From sequence record OL362273.1: DNA of 44,371 nt. One strand, written 5' to 3'. The notes beneath the pieces were generated by a model. That model worked only from the letters and a program-made list of their open reading frames with translations. It searched no databases and was not told the origin of the DNA. Of this stretch, positions 2,828-44,362 are shown piece after piece (position 1 is the stretch's first letter; each line of letters starts with the position of its first letter). The DNA comes from Escherichia phage 6949. The translations under genes were made by a program, and so were the position numbers.

Positions 2828-3127
2828 ATGGCTAAATATGGTACTACAGGTTCTGTTACTGGTCAGGCTTTTCGAGTAAAAGCAGTACAAACTATTGCAA
2901 CGGCAATCCCGATGCCTGTTGTTAAAGAAGCAGACCTTAAGAGTAAAGATCACCCTATCAACATCAAACATTTATCAGGTAAACAGAAAGGTGCAATGGT
3001 TGCTCTTGAGAAAGGTGACATAACCTTACATATTGCTGTTGCACGTGGTAGTGAACCCACAGACCCTTGGGATGTAACTGGTATGGAAGAGGAAGCTGTT
3101 ACTCCAGCAGGGAATAATAATGCTTAA
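2828..3127 (+). CDS. Hypothetical protein, tandem paralog B (SGKQKGAMV motif)
   Basis: RBS AAGGAGGAAG precedes the ATG. It is a paralog of the preceding ORF (SGKQKGAMVALEKGDITLHIAVA). Confidence 0.6.
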   Translation: MAKYGTTGSVTGQAFRVKAVQTIATAIPMPVVKEADLKSKDHPINIKHLSGKQKGAMVALEKGDITLHIAVARGSEPTDPWDVTGMEEEAVTPAGNNNA

Positions 3128-3464
3128 TAAATACTTCAAGCGTAAAGAGTTTGCTTGCCGTTGTGGCTGCGGTACATCCACTGTTGATGCTGAATTACTA
3201 CAGGTAGTCACAGATGTGCGTGAGCACTTTGGTTCTCCTGTAGTTATCACTTCTGGGCACCGCTGTGCTAAGCACAATGCTAATGTAGGAGGAGCTAAGA
3301 ACTCCATGCATCTTACTGGTAAGGCTGCTGACATTAAGGTGTCTGGTGTTGGCCCAATGGAGGTGCGTGCATACCTCTGCAATAAATACCATGATAAGTA
3401 TGGTATTGGTGCTTATCCTACTTTTACCCATATCGACGTTAGAGATAACAAAGCAAGATGGTAA
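3120..3464 (+). CDS. Endolysin, peptidase M15-like zinc peptidoglycan peptidase
   Basis: The 114 aa translation carries SGHRC.KHN..VGG...S.H..G.A.D and FTHIDVRD motifs, which fit the H/D/H zinc-binding pattern of M15 family peptidases. It sits in the lysis region. Confidence 0.7.
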   Translation: MLNKYFKRKEFACRCGCGTSTVDAELLQVVTDVREHFGSPVVITSGHRCAKHNANVGGAKNSMHLTGKAADIKVSGVGPMEVRAYLCNKYHDKYGIGAYPTFTHIDVRDNKARW

Positions 3465-3572
3465 GATGCATTGAATGGTGTGAACGCATGGTTGCTAAGG
3501 CTTCAGAGGAAGGTAATTATGAAGATTGGCAGAACTACTCAACTTTATTAGCACAATGGAAAGGGAGGTGCA

Positions 3573-3722
3573 ATGAAAAAGCTGTTCAAATCTAAGAAGG
3601 TTGTAGGTGCACTAGTTGCATTGGCAATTGCTCTTGTTTCTGTAGGTCTTGGTGTAGACCTTGGCTCTGGCACGGAATCCTCTGTGACAGATGTGGTCTG
3701 CCAAGTGATCACCTGTGAATAA
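3573..3722 (+). CDS. Small membrane protein (49 aa), possible lysis accessory protein
   Basis: This ORF is below the track size cutoff. RBS GGGAGGTG precedes ATG 3573. The protein has a basic N-terminus (MKKLFKSKK), one hydrophobic helix, and a short C-terminal tail with two Cys. Confidence 0.4.
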   Translation: MKKLFKSKKVVGALVALAIALVSVGLGVDLGSGTESSVTDVVCQVITCE

Positions 3723-3936
3723 GTTTCTAGAAGTTCTGGCAGGTCTTATTGGCCTGCTTATTTCTGCTAAGAAGAAACAAGAAGAGAAGGAGGCACAAAG
3801 TGAAGCGAATCATGTTAGTGACAACCCTGCTGATTGGTTCGCTGACCACTTCCGGGTGTCAGCAGGCGTTACCAGAGAAAGCAATGGTGAAACCTCTGAG
3901 GCCGACGCTGACGGAAGTTTACGAGGTAGACGATAA
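3715..3936 (+). CDS. Putative i-spanin-like ORF (weak)
   Basis: A GTG-start ORF with an N-terminal hydrophobic segment (FLEVLAGLIGLLISA) followed by a charged region. It overlaps the o-spanin candidate in another frame. Both the start codon and the membrane topology are uncertain. Confidence 0.25.
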   Translation: MNKFLEVLAGLIGLLISAKKKQEEKEAQSEANHVSDNPADWFADHFRVSAGVTRESNGETSEADADGSLRGRR

Positions 3937-4009
3937 GGTCTGCTTTAGTAAGCCTGACGCTACAAAATTAGGTTTGTATATTCTTTCGCTAGAACGAGGG
4001 TATAATTAA
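3812..4009 (+). CDS. Putative o-spanin (Rz1-like outer-membrane lipoprotein)
   Basis: ATG 3812 opens MLVTTLLIGSLTTSGC, a signal peptide with a lipobox-like TSGC, followed by a Pro-rich mature region. It overlaps the preceding ORF in another frame, as Rz/Rz1 pairs do. Confidence 0.5.
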   Translation: MLVTTLLIGSLTTSGCQQALPEKAMVKPLRPTLTEVYEVDDKVCFSKPDATKLGLYILSLERGYN

Positions 4010-4038
4010 TACATAGCTTTATGTATCAGTGTCTTACG

Positions 4039-4061
4039 ATTTACTGGACACTATAGAAGAG
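4039..4061 (+). promoter_or_regulatory. SP6-type phage promoter upstream of tailspike 1
   Basis: ATTTACTGGACACTATA followed by GAAGAG, with the predicted +1 G at 4056. A leader hairpin lies at 4072-4089. Confidence 0.8.
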
Positions 4062-4140
4062 GTAAGATAGCGCCGTTCTTTTGAGCGGCCTATTACTAGC
4101 CAATCTTCATAGGGAGGGTTGGAAAGTAATAGGAGATAGC

Positions 4141-6039
4141 ATGGCTAAATTAACCAAACCTAATACTGAAGGAATCTTGCATAAAGGACAATCTTTGTAT
4201 GAGTACCTTGATGCGAGAGTTTTAACATCAAAGCCGTTTGGTGCTGCAGGTGACGCCACTACTGATGATACGGAGGTTATAGCTGCTTCATTAAACTCTC
4301 AGAAAGCTGTCACAGTCTCAGATGGTGTATTCTCTAGCTCTGGTATTAATAGTAATTACTGTAATTTAGACGGTAGGGGCAGTGGCGTGCTAAGTCACCG
4401 TTCCAGTACAGGTAACTACTTAGTATTTAACAATCTACGTGCAGGTCGCTTAAGTAATATTACGGTAGAAAGTAATAAGGAGACTGATACAACTCAGGGA
4501 CAGCAGGTATCTCTTGCTGGTGGAAGTGATGTTACTGTAAGTGACGTTAACTTCTCAAACGTTAAAGGTACTGGTTTCAGTTTAATCGCATACCCTAATG
4601 ATGCGCCACCTGATGGACTTATGATTAAAGGCATTCGAGGTAGCTATTCAGGCTATGCTACTAATAAGGCAGCCGGATGCGTACTTGCTGACTCCTCAGT
4701 TAACTCCCTCATAGATAACGTCATTGCTAAGAACTACCCTCAGTTCGGAGCAGTAGAGTTGAAAAGTACAGCCAGTTACAACATAGTCAGTAATGTTATA
4801 GGGGCAGATTGCCAGCATGTAACTTACAACGGCACTGAAGGGCCAATAGCCCCTTCTAATAACCTTATCAAGGGGGTGATGGCTAATAACCCTAAGTATG
4901 CAGCGGTTGTTGCAGGCAAAGGAAGTACGAACTTAATCTCAGACGTGCTCGTAGATTACTCAACTTCTGATGCTAGGCAGGCTCATGGTGTTACCGTAGA
5001 AGGGTCTGATAACGTCATAAATAATGTGCTTATGTCAGGATGTGATGGTACTAACTCTTTAGGACAAGGGCAGACTTCTACAATTGCACGCTTTATAGGT
5101 ACAGCTAATAACAACTATGCGTCTGTATTTCCTAGCTACAGTGCTACAGGTGTTATTACTTTCGAATCCGGCTCTACCCGTAACTTCGTAGAGGTAAAGC
5201 ACCCTGGCAGGAGAAACGACCTTCTCAGTTCTGCTAGTACTATTGACGGTGCAGCTACTATTGACGGCACTAATAATAGTAACGTAGTGCACGCACCTGC
5301 CTTAGGGCAGTACATAGGTAGTATGTCAGGTAGGTTCGAATGGCGGATTAAGTCCATGTCACTCCCTTCAGGAGTTCTTACTTCTGCTGATAAGTACAGA
5401 ATGCTTGGGGATGGTGCTGTATCATTAGCTTTAGGTGGGGGTACTTCTTCTCAAGTTCGCCTATTTACTTCTGATGGTGCTTCTCGGACAGTGTCCCTCA
5501 CCAACGGTAACGTGCGTCTTTCTACCAGTAGCACAGGCTATTTGCAGTTAGGTGCTGATGCAATGACCCCAGATAGTACTGGTACATACGCATTAGGTTC
5601 CGCCAGTCGAGCATGGTCTGGCGGTTTTACTCAAGCAGCATTCACTGTTACCTCAGATGCTCGGTGTAAAACAGAACCTCTTACTATCTCAGATGCCTTA
5701 CTGGATGCTTGGTCTGAAGTTGACTTTGTGCAGTTTCAGTATTTGGATCGTGTTGAGGAGAAGGGTGCAGACTCAGCTAGATGGCACTTCGGTATCATCG
5801 CTCAGCGAGCTAAGGAGGCTTTCGAACGTCACGGTATAGATGCACATCGCTATGGCTTCTTGTGCTTCGACAGTTGGGATGATGTATACGAGGAAGATGC
5901 CAATGGCTCTCGTAAACTGATTACACCAGCAGGTTCCCGCTACGGTATTCGTTACGAGGAAGTACTGATATTAGAGGCTGCGTTGATGCGGAGGACTATC
6001 AAGCGTATGCAGGAAGCACTAGCTTCCCTGCCTAAGTGA
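4141..6039 (+). CDS. Tailspike 1: beta-helix depolymerase with C-terminal intramolecular chaperone (peptidase S74-like) domain
   Basis: ATG 4141 follows RBS AGGAGA; the track start at 4081 is a TTG. The C-terminus carries SDARCK and HFGIIAQRAKEAF motifs, which are typical of auto-cleaving chaperone domains of endosialidase and K5-lyase type tailspikes. A phage promoter lies upstream and a terminator downstream. Confidence 0.8.
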   Translation: MAKLTKPNTEGILHKGQSLYEYLDARVLTSKPFGAAGDATTDDTEVIAASLNSQKAVTVSDGVFSSSGINSNYCNLDGRGSGVLSHRSSTGNYLVFNNLRAGRLSNITVESNKETDTTQGQQVSLAGGSDVTVSDVNFSNVKGTGFSLIAYPNDAPPDGLMIKGIRGSYSGYATNKAAGCVLADSSVNSLIDNVIAKNYPQFGAVELKSTASYNIVSNVIGADCQHVTYNGTEGPIAPSNNLIKGVMANNPKYAAVVAGKGSTNLISDVLVDYSTSDARQAHGVTVEGSDNVINNVLMSGCDGTNSLGQGQTSTIARFIGTANNNYASVFPSYSATGVITFESGSTRNFVEVKHPGRRNDLLSSASTIDGAATIDGTNNSNVVHAPALGQYIGSMSGRFEWRIKSMSLPSGVLTSADKYRMLGDGAVSLALGGGTSSQVRLFTSDGASRTVSLTNGNVRLSTSSTGYLQLGADAMTPDSTGTYALGSASRAWSGGFTQAAFTVTSDARCKTEPLTISDALLDAWSEVDFVQFQYLDRVEEKGADSARWHFGIIAQRAKEAFERHGIDAHRYGFLCFDSWDDVYEEDANGSRKLITPAGSRYGIRYEEVLILEAALMRRTIKRMQEALASLPK

Positions 6040-6046
6040 GAGACAG

Positions 6047-6069
6047 GCAGTGCGTAAGCACTGCTTTTC
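6047..6069 (+). terminator. Intrinsic terminator between the two tailspike genes
   Basis: A 7 bp stem GCAGTGC / GCACTGC with a GTAA loop, followed by TTTTC. Confidence 0.55.
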
Positions 6070-6124
6070 ACGCAACTTTTCTTAAAGGTTATCATGGTGG
6101 TAGCCTTTCAGAAGAGGAGGTTAC

Positions 6125-7837
6125 ATGCTTCAAAGATTAAGTGCTTACTTGGTGAAGTACAAGAGTAAACTAACAGGTACTATTGAGCGCCTGCTATCTG
6201 ATAAACTATCGGATACAATAGATGTTGCGGATTTTGGAGTTACTCCATCTTCCAATGACAACAGGCAAGCACTTCAAGCTGCGTTCAATGCAGTCAGAGT
6301 GTTAGGTGGTGGCACTGTATTAGTCACTAAAGCTGGAAAATACAAACTCAGTGGTACTGTTGAGATATTTGCTAATACACACTTCAAGGTTGCTAAAGGT
6401 GTAACATTTGTACGTGACTACGAAACAGGAGATACGCTATTCAGATTATCACAAGGGCAAGCTAGTAATGTAACAGTCAGTGGAGGTATCTATGAAGGCA
6501 ATGGTCACACTAAGGGAGATACACCTTTTGTAGTATTTGCATCTACTAGTAATAATGATTTGAAGTTTGAAGGCATAACAGTTAACAATGTAGTGGACTA
6601 CCACGCCATAGATTTAGCAGATTGGAACAACGTAGTTATTCGTGATTGTAAATTCCTAGGTTTTAAGAATACAGGCAGTCGTAACTTCTCAGAGGCTATA
6701 CAGTTAGACCCAGGTCTTATTACAGTTGGTCACTATGTGCAGTCAAGTGGTATGCTGGTGGAGAATTGCTATGCTGGTCCAAACATAGAATCAGGGTTTG
6801 GAGGTTATGGTGCACTAATTGGAAATCACGCCTCAGCTTACGGTGTACAGGACAACAATATCCGTATCTTGAATTGCACTACAGATGGTGCTCTCTTTGC
6901 AGGTGTACGTGTATTTAACTGGAAAAACTGGACAGTGCGTGGTTGCACATTTAGGAACTCTAATGCAAGAGGTGTCCATGTTACACCTGTCTCATCTCAG
7001 ACTAAACCGCAGGGTACTCGACAAGGTAATATTGTAGATTGCACTTTTGATGGCGTAAGGACACCAGTGCTAATTGCTGCACCATCTTGGCCTTTTACCG
7101 ATATTAGTGACATTTGGCATGACCATATTGAAATTTCTAATAATACTATGATCCTCACAGAGGATGTATCCTATGGTGTAGATGCAAGGTGGTGTAAGAA
7201 TTTAATTGTAAAAGGTAATACAGGCTCTGGTGGCTTAGGGTTAATAGGTTTACGCTTTGGGACAAAATACCACATCGAAGGTAATACTTGGGAAAACGGA
7301 AGAGGTAGTGGGATTTGGTTAGGTGAGTCTGATGCTACTACATTCATTGGTACTGGTTTATCAGGAGAAGGTATACTTAGTCGTAATATCTTCTCTAAAT
7401 TAGGGCAATATGGTATTCATGTAAACTGCAAGGCTAGCGGTCTAGTGATTAAAGCCAATAATATGAAGGAAGTATCTACAGATGAAGCAGGTAGGCACTT
7501 CATTAGTATAAACACAGGGGCTAACAACATCCTAGTAGAAGGTAATATTGGAGTAGACGGAGAAAGCCCTAACAAGCCAAGCCTTGGTATTCGTGTTACT
7601 TCTTCTTGTTCCAATATTAAACTCATTGGCAATGATTGCTATGGCACACAGGCGCCTCAGAATAACCAAGGAGTTGGTTCTAGTACGGTGATTGTTTATG
7701 GACTAAATGGCAACCCTACAACTTTAGGCGTAGGTGCACCTGTAGGCTCTTTAGCAACTGATATCAATGGTTCTGGTGGTAGTACATTGTACGTTAAAGA
7801 ATCTGGTACATCTGCTCAAGGTTGGGTTGCAAAGTAG
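6125..7837 (+). CDS. Tailspike 2: pectate-lyase-like right-handed beta-helix depolymerase
   Basis: RBS GAGGAGG precedes ATG 6125. The 570 aa protein has repetitive beta-helix coils (NNVVIRDCKF, IRILNCTTDG, WTVRGCTF, NIVDCTFDG, IKLIGNDCYG) and no C-terminal chaperone domain. Confidence 0.75.
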   Translation: MLQRLSAYLVKYKSKLTGTIERLLSDKLSDTIDVADFGVTPSSNDNRQALQAAFNAVRVLGGGTVLVTKAGKYKLSGTVEIFANTHFKVAKGVTFVRDYETGDTLFRLSQGQASNVTVSGGIYEGNGHTKGDTPFVVFASTSNNDLKFEGITVNNVVDYHAIDLADWNNVVIRDCKFLGFKNTGSRNFSEAIQLDPGLITVGHYVQSSGMLVENCYAGPNIESGFGGYGALIGNHASAYGVQDNNIRILNCTTDGALFAGVRVFNWKNWTVRGCTFRNSNARGVHVTPVSSQTKPQGTRQGNIVDCTFDGVRTPVLIAAPSWPFTDISDIWHDHIEISNNTMILTEDVSYGVDARWCKNLIVKGNTGSGGLGLIGLRFGTKYHIEGNTWENGRGSGIWLGESDATTFIGTGLSGEGILSRNIFSKLGQYGIHVNCKASGLVIKANNMKEVSTDEAGRHFISINTGANNILVEGNIGVDGESPNKPSLGIRVTSSCSNIKLIGNDCYGTQAPQNNQGVGSSTVIVYGLNGNPTTLGVGAPVGSLATDINGSGGSTLYVKESGTSAQGWVAK

Positions 7838-7848
7838 TAGGAAGCTGA

Positions 7849-7998
7849 ATGCCATTAATCAAATCAGTTAAGCAAAGTGCTGTACGCCAGAACACAGAAG
7901 GGCTTATTCAATCAGGACGTGACCCTAAGCAAGCCTATGCCATTGCCAAGGATGTACAACGTCGTGTTATGAAGAAACCTTCTGCATCTTCTGCGTAG
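7849..7998 (+). CDS. Small basic hypothetical protein (49 aa)
   Basis: This ORF is below the track cutoff. RBS AGGAAG precedes ATG 7849. The translation is MPLIKSVKQSAVRQNTEGLIQSGRDPKQAYAIAKDVQRRVMKKPSASSA. Confidence 0.3.
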   Translation: MPLIKSVKQSAVRQNTEGLIQSGRDPKQAYAIAKDVQRRVMKKPSASSA

Positions 7999-8067
7999 CA
8001 GGTTAATATCTTAGTATAAACAAGGGCAGACTTAGGTTTGTCCTTAGTGTATTCCAAAGGAGGTAAC

Positions 8068-8196
8068 ATGCTGAAAGATGGTTGGGTTTCATATGACCCT
8101 ACAGACCCTAAGAATTGGCTACAGGTTATCGCTATAGCTTGTGCAGGTAGCCTATTGGCTGCCCTGATGTATTCATTATGGATGTACACAAAGTAA
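8068..8196 (+). CDS. Small membrane protein (42 aa)
   Basis: RBS AAGGAGGT lies 3 nt upstream of ATG 8068. The protein has one hydrophobic helix (LQVIAIACAGSLLAALMYSLWMY). It is the last ORF before the presumed genome end. Confidence 0.4.
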   Translation: MLKDGWVSYDPTDPKNWLQVIAIACAGSLLAALMYSLWMYTK

Positions 8197-8231
8197 CCAA
8201 AGTCAAAATTTTGATGTAGGCGTGTGTCAGC

Positions 8232-8420
8232 TCTCTCGCCCTCGCCCTCGCCGGGTTGTCCCCATAGGGTGGCCTGAGGGAATCCGTCTTCGACGGGCAT
8301 GGCTGATGTACTCCTTGGATAGTACAAGGGAGGCGGAGGGAACGCCTAGGGAGGCCTAGGAATGGCTTAGTGGTGGACAAGGTGATTACCTTAGTGAAGC
8401 CTCTTAGTGCATTCCTGAGG
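8232..8420. repeat. Probable genome terminus and terminal-repeat region (one collapsed copy)
   Basis: TCTCTCGCCCTCGCCCTCGCCGGGTTGTCCCCATAGGG at 8232 parallels the T7 left end as I recall it (TCTCACAGTG...CCCCCATAGGGGG). The region is non-coding and the first early genes lie downstream. The exact boundaries cannot be set from one collapsed copy. Confidence 0.4.
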
Positions 8421-8794
8421 CCATTCAGGGCTTTTATGAGGTATTGACAGGGTGGATGGGCGTGGGCTATCTGTTCGTTTCGTTCACTCCGCTTGCGCTA
8501 CGTTCACTCGCTCACGTGTACCTTATGCTATTACTTGATGGATAGCTTAGGTTATAGCTTAGTGGCCTACCTTAGTTATAACCTTAGTGCATAGCTTAGT
8601 ATCAGCTTAGTAGTGTACCTTAGTAAGTCTTAGTGTCTTCTCTTAGTGATTGCACATGCAAGCATGTAAGATGCCATTAGGTCGCGGTCGGTAGACCGCT
8701 ACAGAAGGAGAATAGTAATAAGATGCAGTAGGAGGAACACCAGAAACCTAGCCAACCTAGCCTATCCTAGCTCTGTATCTATTGCTTTTCCTTA

Positions 8795-8810
8795 GTCTAA
8801 CATGTGAGAC
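8795..8810. repeat. Palindrome family copy, degenerate (GTCTAACATGTGAGAC)
   Basis: One mismatch from a perfect 16 bp palindrome. Its flank CTAGGTTGTCTCACATG (read on the minus strand) matches the copy at 14411-14428. Confidence 0.4.
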
Positions 8811-8844
8811 AACCTAGATTTATCTTAGTGATGATATCTTAGTG

Positions 8845-8876
8845 TTGACAAGGCCATCTCAATATAATACTATTCA
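8845..8876 (+). promoter_or_regulatory. Candidate host sigma70 early promoter
   Basis: A perfect TTGACA at 8845-8850 is followed by a TATAATACTAT block. Spacing to the exact TATAAT is only 12 bp, so the working -10 is more likely TACTAT or AATACT at 15-17 bp. It sits upstream of the first early genes. Confidence 0.35.
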
Positions 8877-9016
8877 TCACGTAGGCAGCACTGAGGTGCT
8901 TAGTAGCCAGCTAGTAAGGCATACGAAGAGACTAGCGCTTACATTGCTCTTTAACAATTTGCTTAGTGTAACCTATGTATGCCGTGGTCAATTACTTATT
9001 GAATGAGGGATTAACT

Positions 9017-43000: not shown

Positions 43001-43400
43001 AAAAGCCTATGTTAACTCTATTGGTCGAGAAGACCAAGATGAATATTTGGAAGAGAAGTTATCGCCTAAAGGGTTGGCCTTTGGTGCAATGGGTATGATG
43101 AGTACAACTGCTGTATTTAGTCTAGGTGGAGATTTCTTAGGTGGCCTAGGTGTTCTACCTTCTGAGTTAGTACAATCCCGTTATGAGGCTGGCTTTCAGA
43201 CTAAGGGTTTGATAGACCAAATACCACTAGTAGGTGTTGGTCAAGATGCATATCGTTTAGCAGATTCTATAACTAAATACGCAGAGGGCGATACAGAAGG
43301 TGTAGATGTGGCACGTAGGGCTTTACGCTTAGTGCCTCTAGCTAATGTAATAGGAATCCAGAACGCATTGCGTTATGGCTTAGATGAACTGGAGGATTAA
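40092..43400 (+). CDS. Internal virion (ejection) protein, largest core protein (T7 gp16 position)
   Basis: A 1102 aa ORF with RBS GGAGGA, last of the internal-protein block before the tail adaptor. Confidence 0.75.
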   Translation: MEQDIKTNWAGYVQSTPEPFSIEAAPVSAPTIRQRNELQEQVLEAKADADILGAVGAAFQNEWLAFGGKRWYDRATADFTPQPDFEIQPEQREALRFKYGTDMMQTITEGVRSEDELNFRIQNADEDLERNKRIARAGWVGSVATIGAAVLDPVGWVASIPTGGAAKVGLVGRAVRGAIAAGVSNAAIESVLVQGDMTRDLDDIMVALGAGMAMGGVIGAVARGRATKLSEQGDDRAASIVRSADAGDRYVRAVADDSIGAMRVKGEEVLTEGAFDISSKGEDLLKTLQREGNAIDMTPRRWAGTLSALGTVVHSSQDASVRGLGARLFESPQGLGMQKASASLMQNTNLNRLKSADMNRFNDGFDLWLKENNINPVAGHTNSHYVQQYNEKVWEAVRIGMDESTPKSIRMAAEGQQAMYREALALRQRSGESGFEKVKADDKYMPDIFDSMKARRQFSMHDKEDIIELFSRAYQNGSRKVPKEVADDIARAQVNRVADATLTGQLSFEKAMSGQTKAEYEALMRKAGFSDEEIEKMVEALDNKETRDNISNRAKMSLGLDVTQEYNGIRMRDFMNTNVEELTDNYMKEAAGGAALARQGFSTYQAALNAIDLVERNARNAAKDTKAHAQFEAESAKIRQSEPDYKKAQEKIEELKKRLKLKEKDEAAGLAIDEEIRQMREGLRLIMGKSIDSNPQDLSTKMLRRGRDITGVLRLGQMGFAQLGELANFMGEFGIAATTMALGKQFRFTSKALRNGDGFFRDKNLAEVERMVGYIGEDNWLTTKGARPDEFGDVTTVRGMMAHFDQSMNSIRRAQTNLSLFRMAQGSLERMTNRQIALSFIDHLEGKKIIPQKKLEELGLTQEFMTNLQKHYDANSKGSGLLGFDTMPYAMGETLANAIRRKSGLIIQRNFIGDEGIWMNKALGKTFAQLKSFSLVSGEKQFGRGIRHDKIGLAKKTAYGFALGSIVYAAKAYVNSIGREDQDEYLEEKLSPKGLAFGAMGMMSTTAVFSLGGDFLGGLGVLPSELVQSRYEAGFQTKGLIDQIPLVGVGQDAYRLADSITKYAEGDTEGVDVARRALRLVPLANVIGIQNALRYGLDELED

Positions 43401-44362
43401 TGAGTTATACTTTCACAGAACATATAGCCAACGGTACGCAAGTAACCTATCCCTTTAGCTTTGCTGGTAGGGATAAAGGTTATCTTCGTGCCTCAGATGT
43501 GATAGTGGAGTCTCTTCAAGGTAACACTTGGATTGAGGTTACATCTGGCTGGCAACTAACTGGCACGCACCAGATTACTTTTGATGTAGCACCAGTTGCA
43601 GGTTTGAAGTTCCGTATTAGAAGGGAAGTACAAAAGGAGTATCCATACGCTGAGTTTGACCGTGGTGTTACCTTGGATATGAAGTCTTTAAATGGTTCTT
43701 TCATTCATATACTGGAGATTACACAGGAGTTACTTGACGGGTTTTATCCAGAAGGATACTTCATTAAACAGAATGTAAGCTGGGGCGGCAATAAGATTAC
43801 TGATTTGGCTGATGGCACAAATCCGGGAGATGCAGTAAATAAAGGGCAGCTTGATGCCATCGACAAGAAGCATACAGATTGGAACGCCAAACAGGACATT
43901 GAGATTGCTGGCCTTAAGGCTGGTATGACTTCTGGTATTGCGCACAGAACTGTTCCTTGGTACACGATAGCCCAAGGTGGTGAGATTTCCGTAAAACCAC
44001 CTTATGAATTTCAAGATGCACTAGTTTTCCTTAATGGGGTGTTGCAGCACCAAATTGTAGGCGCATACTCTATAAGCAACAACACTATCACTTTCGCAGA
44101 GCCGCTTGTGGCTGGTACAGAGGTGTATGTGCTGATTGGTAGTCGTGTGGCTACATCTGAACCTAATATTCAGTTAGAGTTGAACTTTGACTTAGTAGAA
44201 GGCCAACAAGTAGTACAGATTGGCTCTGCATTTAAGTACATTGAGGTCTACCTTGATGGATTATTACAACCTAAACTTGCTTATCAGGTAGACGGTGACA
44301 TTGTTACTTTCTCAGAAAGAGTACCAGAATGCCGGATGACTGCTAAGATTATCACAGCATAA
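43400..44362 (+). CDS. Tailspike adaptor protein (T7 gp17 N-terminal domain-like)
   Basis: The N-terminus (VTYPFSFAGRDKGYLRASDVIV ... GNKITDLADGTNPGDAVNKGQLDA) resembles the tail-attachment domain of the T7 fibre. It has no receptor-binding domain, and the tailspikes are encoded separately. Confidence 0.7.
   Translation: MSYTFTEHIANGTQVTYPFSFAGRDKGYLRASDVIVESLQGNTWIEVTSGWQLTGTHQITFDVAPVAGLKFRIRREVQKEYPYAEFDRGVTLDMKSLNGSFIHILEITQELLDGFYPEGYFIKQNVSWGGNKITDLADGTNPGDAVNKGQLDAIDKKHTDWNAKQDIEIAGLKAGMTSGIAHRTVPWYTIAQGGEISVKPPYEFQDALVFLNGVLQHQIVGAYSISNNTITFAEPLVAGTEVYVLIGSRVATSEPNIQLELNFDLVEGQQVVQIGSAFKYIEVYLDGLLQPKLAYQVDGDIVTFSERVPECRMTAKIITA

Follow-up and report, generated by a model that had tools for sequence, protein, structure and literature searches.

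A swappable two-tailspike cassette in Escherichia phage 6949 pairs a K5 lyase with a second spike that probably targets the K2 capsule

The window analysed here, a stretch of 44,371 bases from Escherichia phage 6949 (OL362273.1), is the full genome, in circularly permuted form, of a K1-5-like podophage belonging to Vectrevirus, a genus of the Autographiviridae family. Its interval 4039-7837 is the known two-tailspike host-range cassette of K1-5-like coliphages, in which the gene for spike 1 (4141-6039, plus strand) is followed by the gene for spike 2 (6125-7837, plus strand). Our analysis points to a swappable cassette of the K1-5 kind that pairs a K5 lyase with a spike for the K2 capsule and expresses both from a single promoter with read-through, and we consider this reading as a whole to be about 80% probable. 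It builds on the identities of the genes, the anatomy of the cassette, its breakpoints and a statistical link between carriage of spike 2 and hits on K2 strains, all of which were observed directly. A first-pass annotation of this DNA had suggested dual capsule or O-antigen specificity, and dual polysaccharide specificity is likely.

The system itself is not new. The architecture of the cassette is known from K1-5 and SP6 and is a textbook example of podophage host-range modularity, and the exact gene pair is already found in about 17 deposited phage genomes and in three papers. The present analysis contributes the K2 target of spike 2, triangulated from published host-range data, and the exact breakpoints of each slot (4155-6044 and 6179-7842), whose flanks could serve as recombination arms for engineering. 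K2 is a common capsule type of extra-intestinal pathogenic E. coli, including CFT073 and part of sequence type (ST) 131, and the probable K5 plus K2 specificity is the part of the cassette worth following. If the assignment is true, the spike 2 family would cleave a teichoic-acid-like polymer that is common in ST73 and ST131 uropathogens, by a chemistry other than that of the usual lyases or O-antigen glycosidases. Capsule typing, anti-virulence enzyme therapy, phage cocktails and engineered K1-5-type phages would all benefit from a K2 depolymerase once it is validated.

A K1-5-like cassette with two exchangeable slots

Across positions 3900-8400, the window is 95-98% identical over the full length to 17 deposited phages (including 6948, LI10P5, EEc2, vKMB47, 101101UKE1, Sem1-4, LL11 and G9, among others) and 97% identical to K1-5 across 63% of the length. 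The gene order is the same in the window, LL11 and K1-5, running from endolysin, holin and spanin through spike 1 and spike 2 to small open reading frames (ORFs), of which gene 48 is the first. Two distinct spike genes are present as annotated in the first pass; they adjoin each other 3′ of the lysis genes, close to the genome's right end, and each encodes a short N-terminal docking peptide. In coliphage K1-5, gene 46 reportedly encodes a K5 lyase, gene 47 an endosialidase, and gp37 is the adaptor. The window and K1-5 share a genus and flanks that are 96-97% identical, and they agree in promoter, leader, 85-nucleotide spacer, gene order, adaptor and the position of the terminal repeat. The difference lies in slot 2, which holds an 811-residue K1 endosialidase in K1-5, but here an unrelated 570-residue beta-helix that lacks the S74 chaperone, the two genes having only the first 18 codons in common.

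The K5 lyase together with spike 2 (92-99.5% amino acid identity) recurs in LL11, 6948, EEc2/EEc4, EC120, vB_EcoP-101101UKE1, vKMB47, Sem1-4, vB_Ec-G9 and LI10_P3 to P6. Several of these phages differ from the window in having an HNH homing endonuclease gene in place of its 52-residue ORF at 8038-8196. Phages with this pair have been described as carrying two tail spikes or depolymerases (PMC6687929, PMC11162368, PMC13005862). A second group of relatives, T147P1/T147P9 and LF31P3, has the same spike 2 (96% amino acid identity), spacer, promoter and leader, but slot 1 is occupied by a 630-residue spike linked to O6 hosts instead of the K5 lyase.

Comparison of the interval among relatives, a check proposed with the first-pass annotation, revealed that either slot can hold a different gene and that the breakpoints lie in conserved flanks. 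Homology to the Vectreviruses T147P1/T147P9 extends up to 4154 and begins again at 6045, with the unrelated 630-residue spike in between, which delimits the slot 1 module to 4155-6044 (plus strand), or spike 1 minus its first 5 codons. Homology to K1-5 extends from 3457 to 6178 and begins again at 7843, with the endosialidase in between, which delimits the slot 2 module to 6179-7842 (plus strand), or spike 2 minus its first 18 codons. K1-5 therefore differs only in the second module and T147P1/T147P9 only in the first, in agreement with the modular exchange of host range that had been read from the layout. Because the breakpoints fall in conserved flanks, the promoter and leader, the 85-nucleotide spacer and gene 48 form three recombination arms, and the slots change independently. 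Through homologous recombination in these stretches, one spike would be swapped per event; the first 5 codons of spike 1 belong to the promoter and leader arm and the first 18 codons of spike 2 to the spacer arm, with gene 48 as the third.

Spike 1 corresponds to the K5 lyase KflA

Spike 1 is a 632-residue homologue of gp46 and, judged from its sequence, is the K5 capsule (heparosan) lyase KflA. It has 8 residue differences from K1-5 gp46 and matches PHROG 14895 over its full length, while residues 1-505 align end to end with the K5 lyase KflA of coliphage K5A (PDB 2x3h, E = 0) and residues 31-631 with PDB 9vvr (E = 0). The earlier description of a K5-lyase-type spike thus named the right family but was too loose, as the protein appears to be the K5 lyase itself. 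A program-made ORF list put the start at TTG 4081. The true start is ATG 4141, because in the alignment residue 1 of that product falls on the first native residue of the crystallised enzyme, and a ribosome-binding site (RBS) lies upstream. Spike 1 has E206 and K208, which we take to be the active-site residues of KflA. Among the few substitutions that separate it from the K5A enzyme is G209S, beside E206 and K208, at a position where K1-5 and PDB 9vvr have glycine.

Spike 1 had also been annotated as ending in an auto-cleaving chaperone, and this holds. The Pfam domain Peptidase_S74 (PF13884) matches residues 505-565 with 54.4 bits (cut-off 22), the chaperone is also matched by PDB 3gw6 and 3gud, and the motifs SDARCK (S505 to K510, in the context TSDARCK) and HFGIIAQ begin at residues 505 and 549. 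S505 and K510 make up a Ser...Lys pair with five-residue spacing, of which Ser911/Lys916 is presumably the matching cleavage-site pair in endoNF. The crystallised mature KflA chain aligns only up to residue 505, which fits self-cleavage at S505. The mature spike is accordingly predicted to comprise approximately residues 1-505, with the C-terminal Peptidase_S74 chaperone starting at S505. In the mechanism that we propose, spike 1 would fold with the help of this chaperone, which would then cleave itself off at S505, and the mature spike would cut the heparosan (K5) capsule through beta-elimination. In PDB 9vvr, the same lyase body is joined to a 241-residue N-terminal anchor, and the lyase body is therefore itself a mobile module.

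Host-range data link spike 2 to the K2 capsule

Papers on phages with the same gene pair assign no substrate to spike 2, which is called a second spike or a putative depolymerase in the reports on LL11 (PMC6687929), vKMB47 (PMC11162368) and Sem1-4 (PMC13005862). Host-range data from several phages converge on K2. The phages LI10_P3 to P6 were isolated on strain LI10, which is O25:H4, ST131 and capsule K2 (Gaborieau et al., bioRxiv 10.1101/2023.11.22.567924, supplement). Their GenBank records contain the K5 lyase and spike 2 at 98-99.5% amino acid identity. Likewise, vKMB47, which carries the K5 lyase and spike 2, grows and was propagated on CFT073 (PMC11162368), a K2-capsule host according to the SHAK phage preprint. 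vKMB14, which has the K5 lyase but another spike in second place, fails to infect CFT073.

The statistical link comes from four T147 Vectreviruses, which carry spike 2 at 96% identity together with a different slot-1 spike. In Supplementary Table 3 of the same preprint, they infect 9 of 10 K2 strains, compared to 46 of 393 other strains (Fisher p = 8e-8). Within the non-O6 strains of that table, the corresponding figures are 7 of 8 and 30 of 374 (p = 3e-7). The T205 phages, which possess the K5 lyase and a different second spike, infect none of the 10 K2 strains.

An alternative is that spike 2 recognises an O antigen (O6 or O25) or another glycan that co-occurs with K2 lineages, in which case the K2 link would arise from clonal structure. 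Both CFT073 and T147 are O6:H1 ST73, the T147 Vectreviruses infect 18 of the 21 O6 strains in the table, and the K types on which the association is built are predicted from genomes. In addition, P0006, the nearest E. coli prophage homologue of spike 2 (47% identity), has a P22-type head-binding domain, and spikes with such a domain usually cut O antigen. The O6 matches can nevertheless be accounted for by the T147 slot-1 spike, homologues of which occur in O6-host phages including the Kayfunavirus T147_P5. This phage lacks spike 2, infects 17 of the 21 O6 strains, and has a receptor-binding protein with 43% identity to the slot-1 spike of the T147 phages. Since T147_P5 infects O6 strains without spike 2, the O6 signal belongs to the slot-1 spike and the K2 signal to spike 2. 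Moreover, the K2 strains infected, as listed in the table, span O1, O4, O25, O75, O107 and O-negative types and the phylogroups B2 and D, and this wide spread argues against an O-antigen target. LI10, on which the closest relatives were isolated, is O25 rather than O6 in the supplement, and phages with the K5 lyase and spike 2 still grow on K2 hosts without an O6-type spike. A target other than K2 is thus unlikely. The O6 antigen, considered because CFT073 and T147 are O6, was rejected as the main reading in view of the O6-associated T147 slot-1 spike and the O25 type of LI10.

The T147P1 slot-1 spike (630 residues; L004 1523-3415, also in L005) merits a separate remark. It is unrelated to the K5 lyase, and its relatives, found in the Kayfunavirus T147P5 (43% identity), the Kagunavirus 536P11 (48% identity), phiEB49 and others, all come from O6 hosts. 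The family occurs in phages isolated on 536, LF31, CFT073 and ATCC 25922, the last of which we take to be of serotype O6. The group to which phiEB49 belongs has been reported to require O6 antigen. The T147 slot-1 spike is probably a member of an O6-antigen spike family common to three phage families.

Several points weigh against the K2 assignment. The host ranges of the T147 and T205 phages were transcribed by hand from Supplementary Table 3, and the K types in the preprint are genomic predictions, not serology (bioRxiv 10.1101/2023.11.22.567924). Most of the non-O6 K2 matches in the table have score 1, the weakest score given, and the K2 strain NILS75 is not infected by the T147 Vectreviruses. 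NILS55 and NILS64 (ST131 O25:H4, listed with capsule type '5') display the same weak signature as K2 strains, with infection by T147_P9/T147_P10 only; their capsule may be K2-related or mistyped. In our literature search, no paper attributed a K2-specific enzyme to a phage and none contained a biochemical test of spike 2, and neither the K2 capsule paper PMC12488582 nor PMC12505892 mentions a Vectrevirus that depends on K2 or a depolymerase for this capsule. To these may be added the adhesin nature of the nearest solved structure, described below, which bears on cleavage. On balance, the odds are that spike 2 targets the E. coli K2 capsule, by a clear though not overwhelming margin.

Fold and possible chemistry of spike 2

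Spike 2 occupies the gp47 slot and is a predicted right-handed beta-helix tailspike of 570 residues. Its sole Pfam match is the generic Beta_helix family (PF13229). Structure prediction had been suggested as a check, and an AlphaFold model based on a 39-sequence alignment is a confident right-handed beta-helix, with a predicted local distance difference test score (pLDDT) of 88.2 and a predicted template modelling score of 0.89; confidence is lower in the first 28 and the last approximately 60 residues. A prior model from the single sequence had a pLDDT of 48 and was unusable, and the prediction was repeated with the alignment for this reason. The earlier label of a pectate-lyase-like protein therefore stands for the fold and not for the chemistry, as no lyase family was matched when spike 2 was searched against pectate lyase profiles (PL1/PL3/PL9 type). 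A parallel right-handed beta-helix and homology to phage tailspikes, the generic marks of a capsule depolymerase tailspike, are both found in spike 2.

The Pfam search gave no Peptidase_S74 (PF13884) match in spike 2, as expected from the claim that this spike lacks the chaperone domain, and a different conserved motif stands at the C-terminus instead. Within the last 35 residues, the pattern GAPVGS..T..G.....LY.KESGT...GWVAK is kept in every full-length homologue, to as low as 33% identity. This motif, which lies in a low-confidence part of the model, may help the protein to trimerise or fold and so stand in for the absent S74 chaperone.

Among homologues at 44-51% identity, the N-terminal anchors are different: E. 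coli and Rahnella prophages have the P22 head-binding domain (PF09008), and other phages have the TSP1/gp66 N-terminal domain (PF18668). The N-terminal half of spike 2 has distant relatives among the tailspikes of Bacillus phages (the SPO1 gp18.3 group) and Streptomyces phages, and more distant relatives bear GH28/Pectate_lyase_3 signatures. The G+C content of the spike 2 gene is 40.9%, compared to 45.0% for the genome. H160, Q193 and H235 are invariant across the homologues, and E190 and D195 are kept in at least 90% of the sequences, down to 23% identity. These five residues form a plausible active-site row.

When the PDB was searched with the spike 2 sequence, PfbA of Streptococcus pneumoniae (PDB 3zpp/4mr0) was the only match. 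This protein is an adhesin anchored to the cell wall and is not known to have enzymatic activity, unlike the function proposed for spike 2. Because this is the nearest solved structure, binding without cleavage remains a rival, in which spike 2 would be a non-catalytic, adhesin-like receptor-binding beta-helix rather than a depolymerase. This explanation has to contend with the conservation of the polar cluster H160, E190, Q193, D195 and H235 down to 23% identity, with the GH28/Pectate_lyase_3 signatures of the more distant relatives, and with the general need of capsule-specific podophages to cut through the capsule. Halos surround the plaques of vKMB47 (PMC11162368) and Sem1-4 (PMC13005862), which fits an enzyme, and vKMB47 was propagated on a non-K5 host. 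Hence, a purely adhesive spike 2 seems improbable to us.

The capsule polymer of the K2 strain CFT073 is reported to be built of glycerol phosphate residues. The sugar of the K2 polymer is presumably galactose, with uronic acid absent. As beta-elimination depends on a uronic acid, a spike 2 that acts on K2 would have to hydrolyse a glycosidic or a phosphodiester bond. Spike 2 would then most probably bind and hydrolyse the K2 capsule as a galactose-glycerol-phosphate polymer, an activity and a chemistry that we infer from the above, and the phage would infect extra-intestinal pathogenic E. coli of either capsule type, K5 or K2. It is conceivable, at slightly less than even odds, that spike 2 is the first identified K2 depolymerase and represents a beta-helix family related to PfbA and the Bacillus phage spikes that hydrolyses a phosphodiester-linked polymer as a glycosidase or a phosphodiesterase.

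Expression from a single promoter

The cassette begins with its own phage promoter, as had been noted from the sequence. This is an SP6-type phage RNA polymerase promoter, ATTTACTGGACACTATAGAAGAG (4039-4061, plus strand), which matches the promoter consensus of the window. The window has 8 perfect copies of the core GACACTATAGAAG, and one of them is in the sequence ATTTACTGGACACTATAGAAG at 4039-4059. With at most 2 mismatches, the core is found 13 times, where 1.4 matches are expected by chance, and 12 of the 13 lie on the plus strand. Upstream of the core in the cassette promoter is ATTTAC(T/C)G, which is common to other copies. The promoter sequence is identical in T147P1, whose spike 1 differs.

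Between the promoter and spike 1 lies a conserved 5′ leader (4062-4140, plus strand) that carries the RBS AGGAGA and is predicted to form two hairpins (4072-4089 and 4090-4132). The predicted fold has an energy of -34 kcal/mol (z = -5.1 against shuffled sequences), and the leader is kept in relatives regardless of their spike 1. The hairpins may be an RNase III or mRNA-stability element.

The two spike genes are separated by a conserved 85-nucleotide spacer (6040-6124, plus strand) that contains two hairpins and the RBS GAGGAGG, with no promoter. The first hairpin (6046-6067) consists of GCAGTGC-GTAA-GCACTGC followed by UUUU, and the second (approximately 6076-6116) lies just 5′ of the spike 2 RBS. 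The 89-nucleotide stretch 6036-6124 folds with -39.7 kcal/mol (z = -7.1 against shuffled sequences), and the spacer is nearly identical in K1-5. A simple terminator scan did not call the hairpin at 6046-6067, as just 4 U follow the stem. Between 5500 and 6130, there is no promoter core with up to 3 mismatches. A scan for sigma-70 promoters was uninformative, with fewer sigma-70-like sites than in shuffled sequence.

With no promoter between the genes, spike 2 would have to be transcribed from 4039 or from further upstream, through the hairpin, and the hairpin would therefore be at most a partial terminator. The first-pass annotation had placed a terminator hairpin here: the hairpin exists, while a full terminator would not agree with the need to read through it. 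An efficient terminator, leaving spike 2 as a silent spare with little or no expression, would fit the perfect 7-base-pair GC-rich stem, the GNRA loop, the U run and the LL11 record, which annotates the spacer as a terminator. However, spike 2 is intact, has the strong RBS GAGGAGG and is 92-99% conserved in 21 phages; phages with the K5 lyase and spike 2 have been recovered from K2 hosts, for which the K5 lyase is of no use; and in K1-5 the same spacer sits 5′ of a functional endosialidase gene. We regard a silent spike 2 as very improbable. In the expression scheme that we favour, the promoter at 4039 would transcribe both spike genes, with the spacer hairpin read through at least in part. 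The hairpin may instead stabilise or process the RNA.

Docking on the tail adaptor

Both spikes lack a long N-terminal anchor, as had been pointed out, and their beta-helices begin at approximately residue 30. A separate adaptor with T7 fibre N-terminal homology, likewise recognised earlier, is encoded at 43400-44362 (plus strand) and is a homologue of gp37 (PHROG 2710). Residues 3-153 match PF03906, the T7 gp17 tail-binding domain, with 27.2 bits (cut-off 25.2), and the protein matches the tail adaptor protein of PDB 7y22_e with an E value of 1e-81. In the first 38 residues of spike 2, 20 of 38 are identical to the K1-5 endosialidase, and residues 1 to approximately 38 are presumed to be an adaptor-docking peptide. 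By analogy with K1-5, both spikes would dock as trimers on the adaptor via their short N-terminal peptides, with each of the six tail positions carrying both spikes. K1-5 virions are reported to carry both spikes, and on this analogy we infer the presence of both in the virion; that the occupancy is borrowed from K1-5 counts against the overall reading to that extent.

The right-hand flank and other features of the genome

The right-hand flank of the cassette is a small conserved ORF of 49 residues (7849-7998, plus strand), homologous to K1-5 gene 48 (PHROG 2423), and 3′ of it lies the 52-residue ORF at 8038-8196. The 234-base-pair terminal repeat of K1-5, whose left end (1-234) equals its right end, maps to 8236-8469 of the window with 87-96% identity, which marks the position of the terminal direct repeat and thus the physical genome ends, collapsed by the circular permutation. 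The earlier statement that the cassette abuts the genome end is only roughly right, as the two small ORFs, over approximately 400 base pairs, lie between the cassette and the repeat.

In LL11, an HNH/NUMOD4 homing endonuclease gene (L001 5626-6087, corresponding to window positions 8015-8199) replaces the 52-residue ORF directly beside the cassette, and by annotation such a gene is also found at this position in Sem1-4 and G9. Homing-associated co-conversion could help to spread nearby spike alleles. Following the terminal repeat, the non-coding stretch 8380-8960 contains dense copies of CTTAGT(G/A) and AGCTTAGT, for which early promoters and replication or packaging signals are candidates. 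Elsewhere in the window are two adjoining small paralogous genes (2465-2809 and 2828-3127), which go by 'acetyl-CoA acetyltransferase' or 'duplication region' in the K1-5 and LL11 annotations. The former name seems doubtful, given that the products have 99-114 residues and the genes sit between the terminase and lysis genes.

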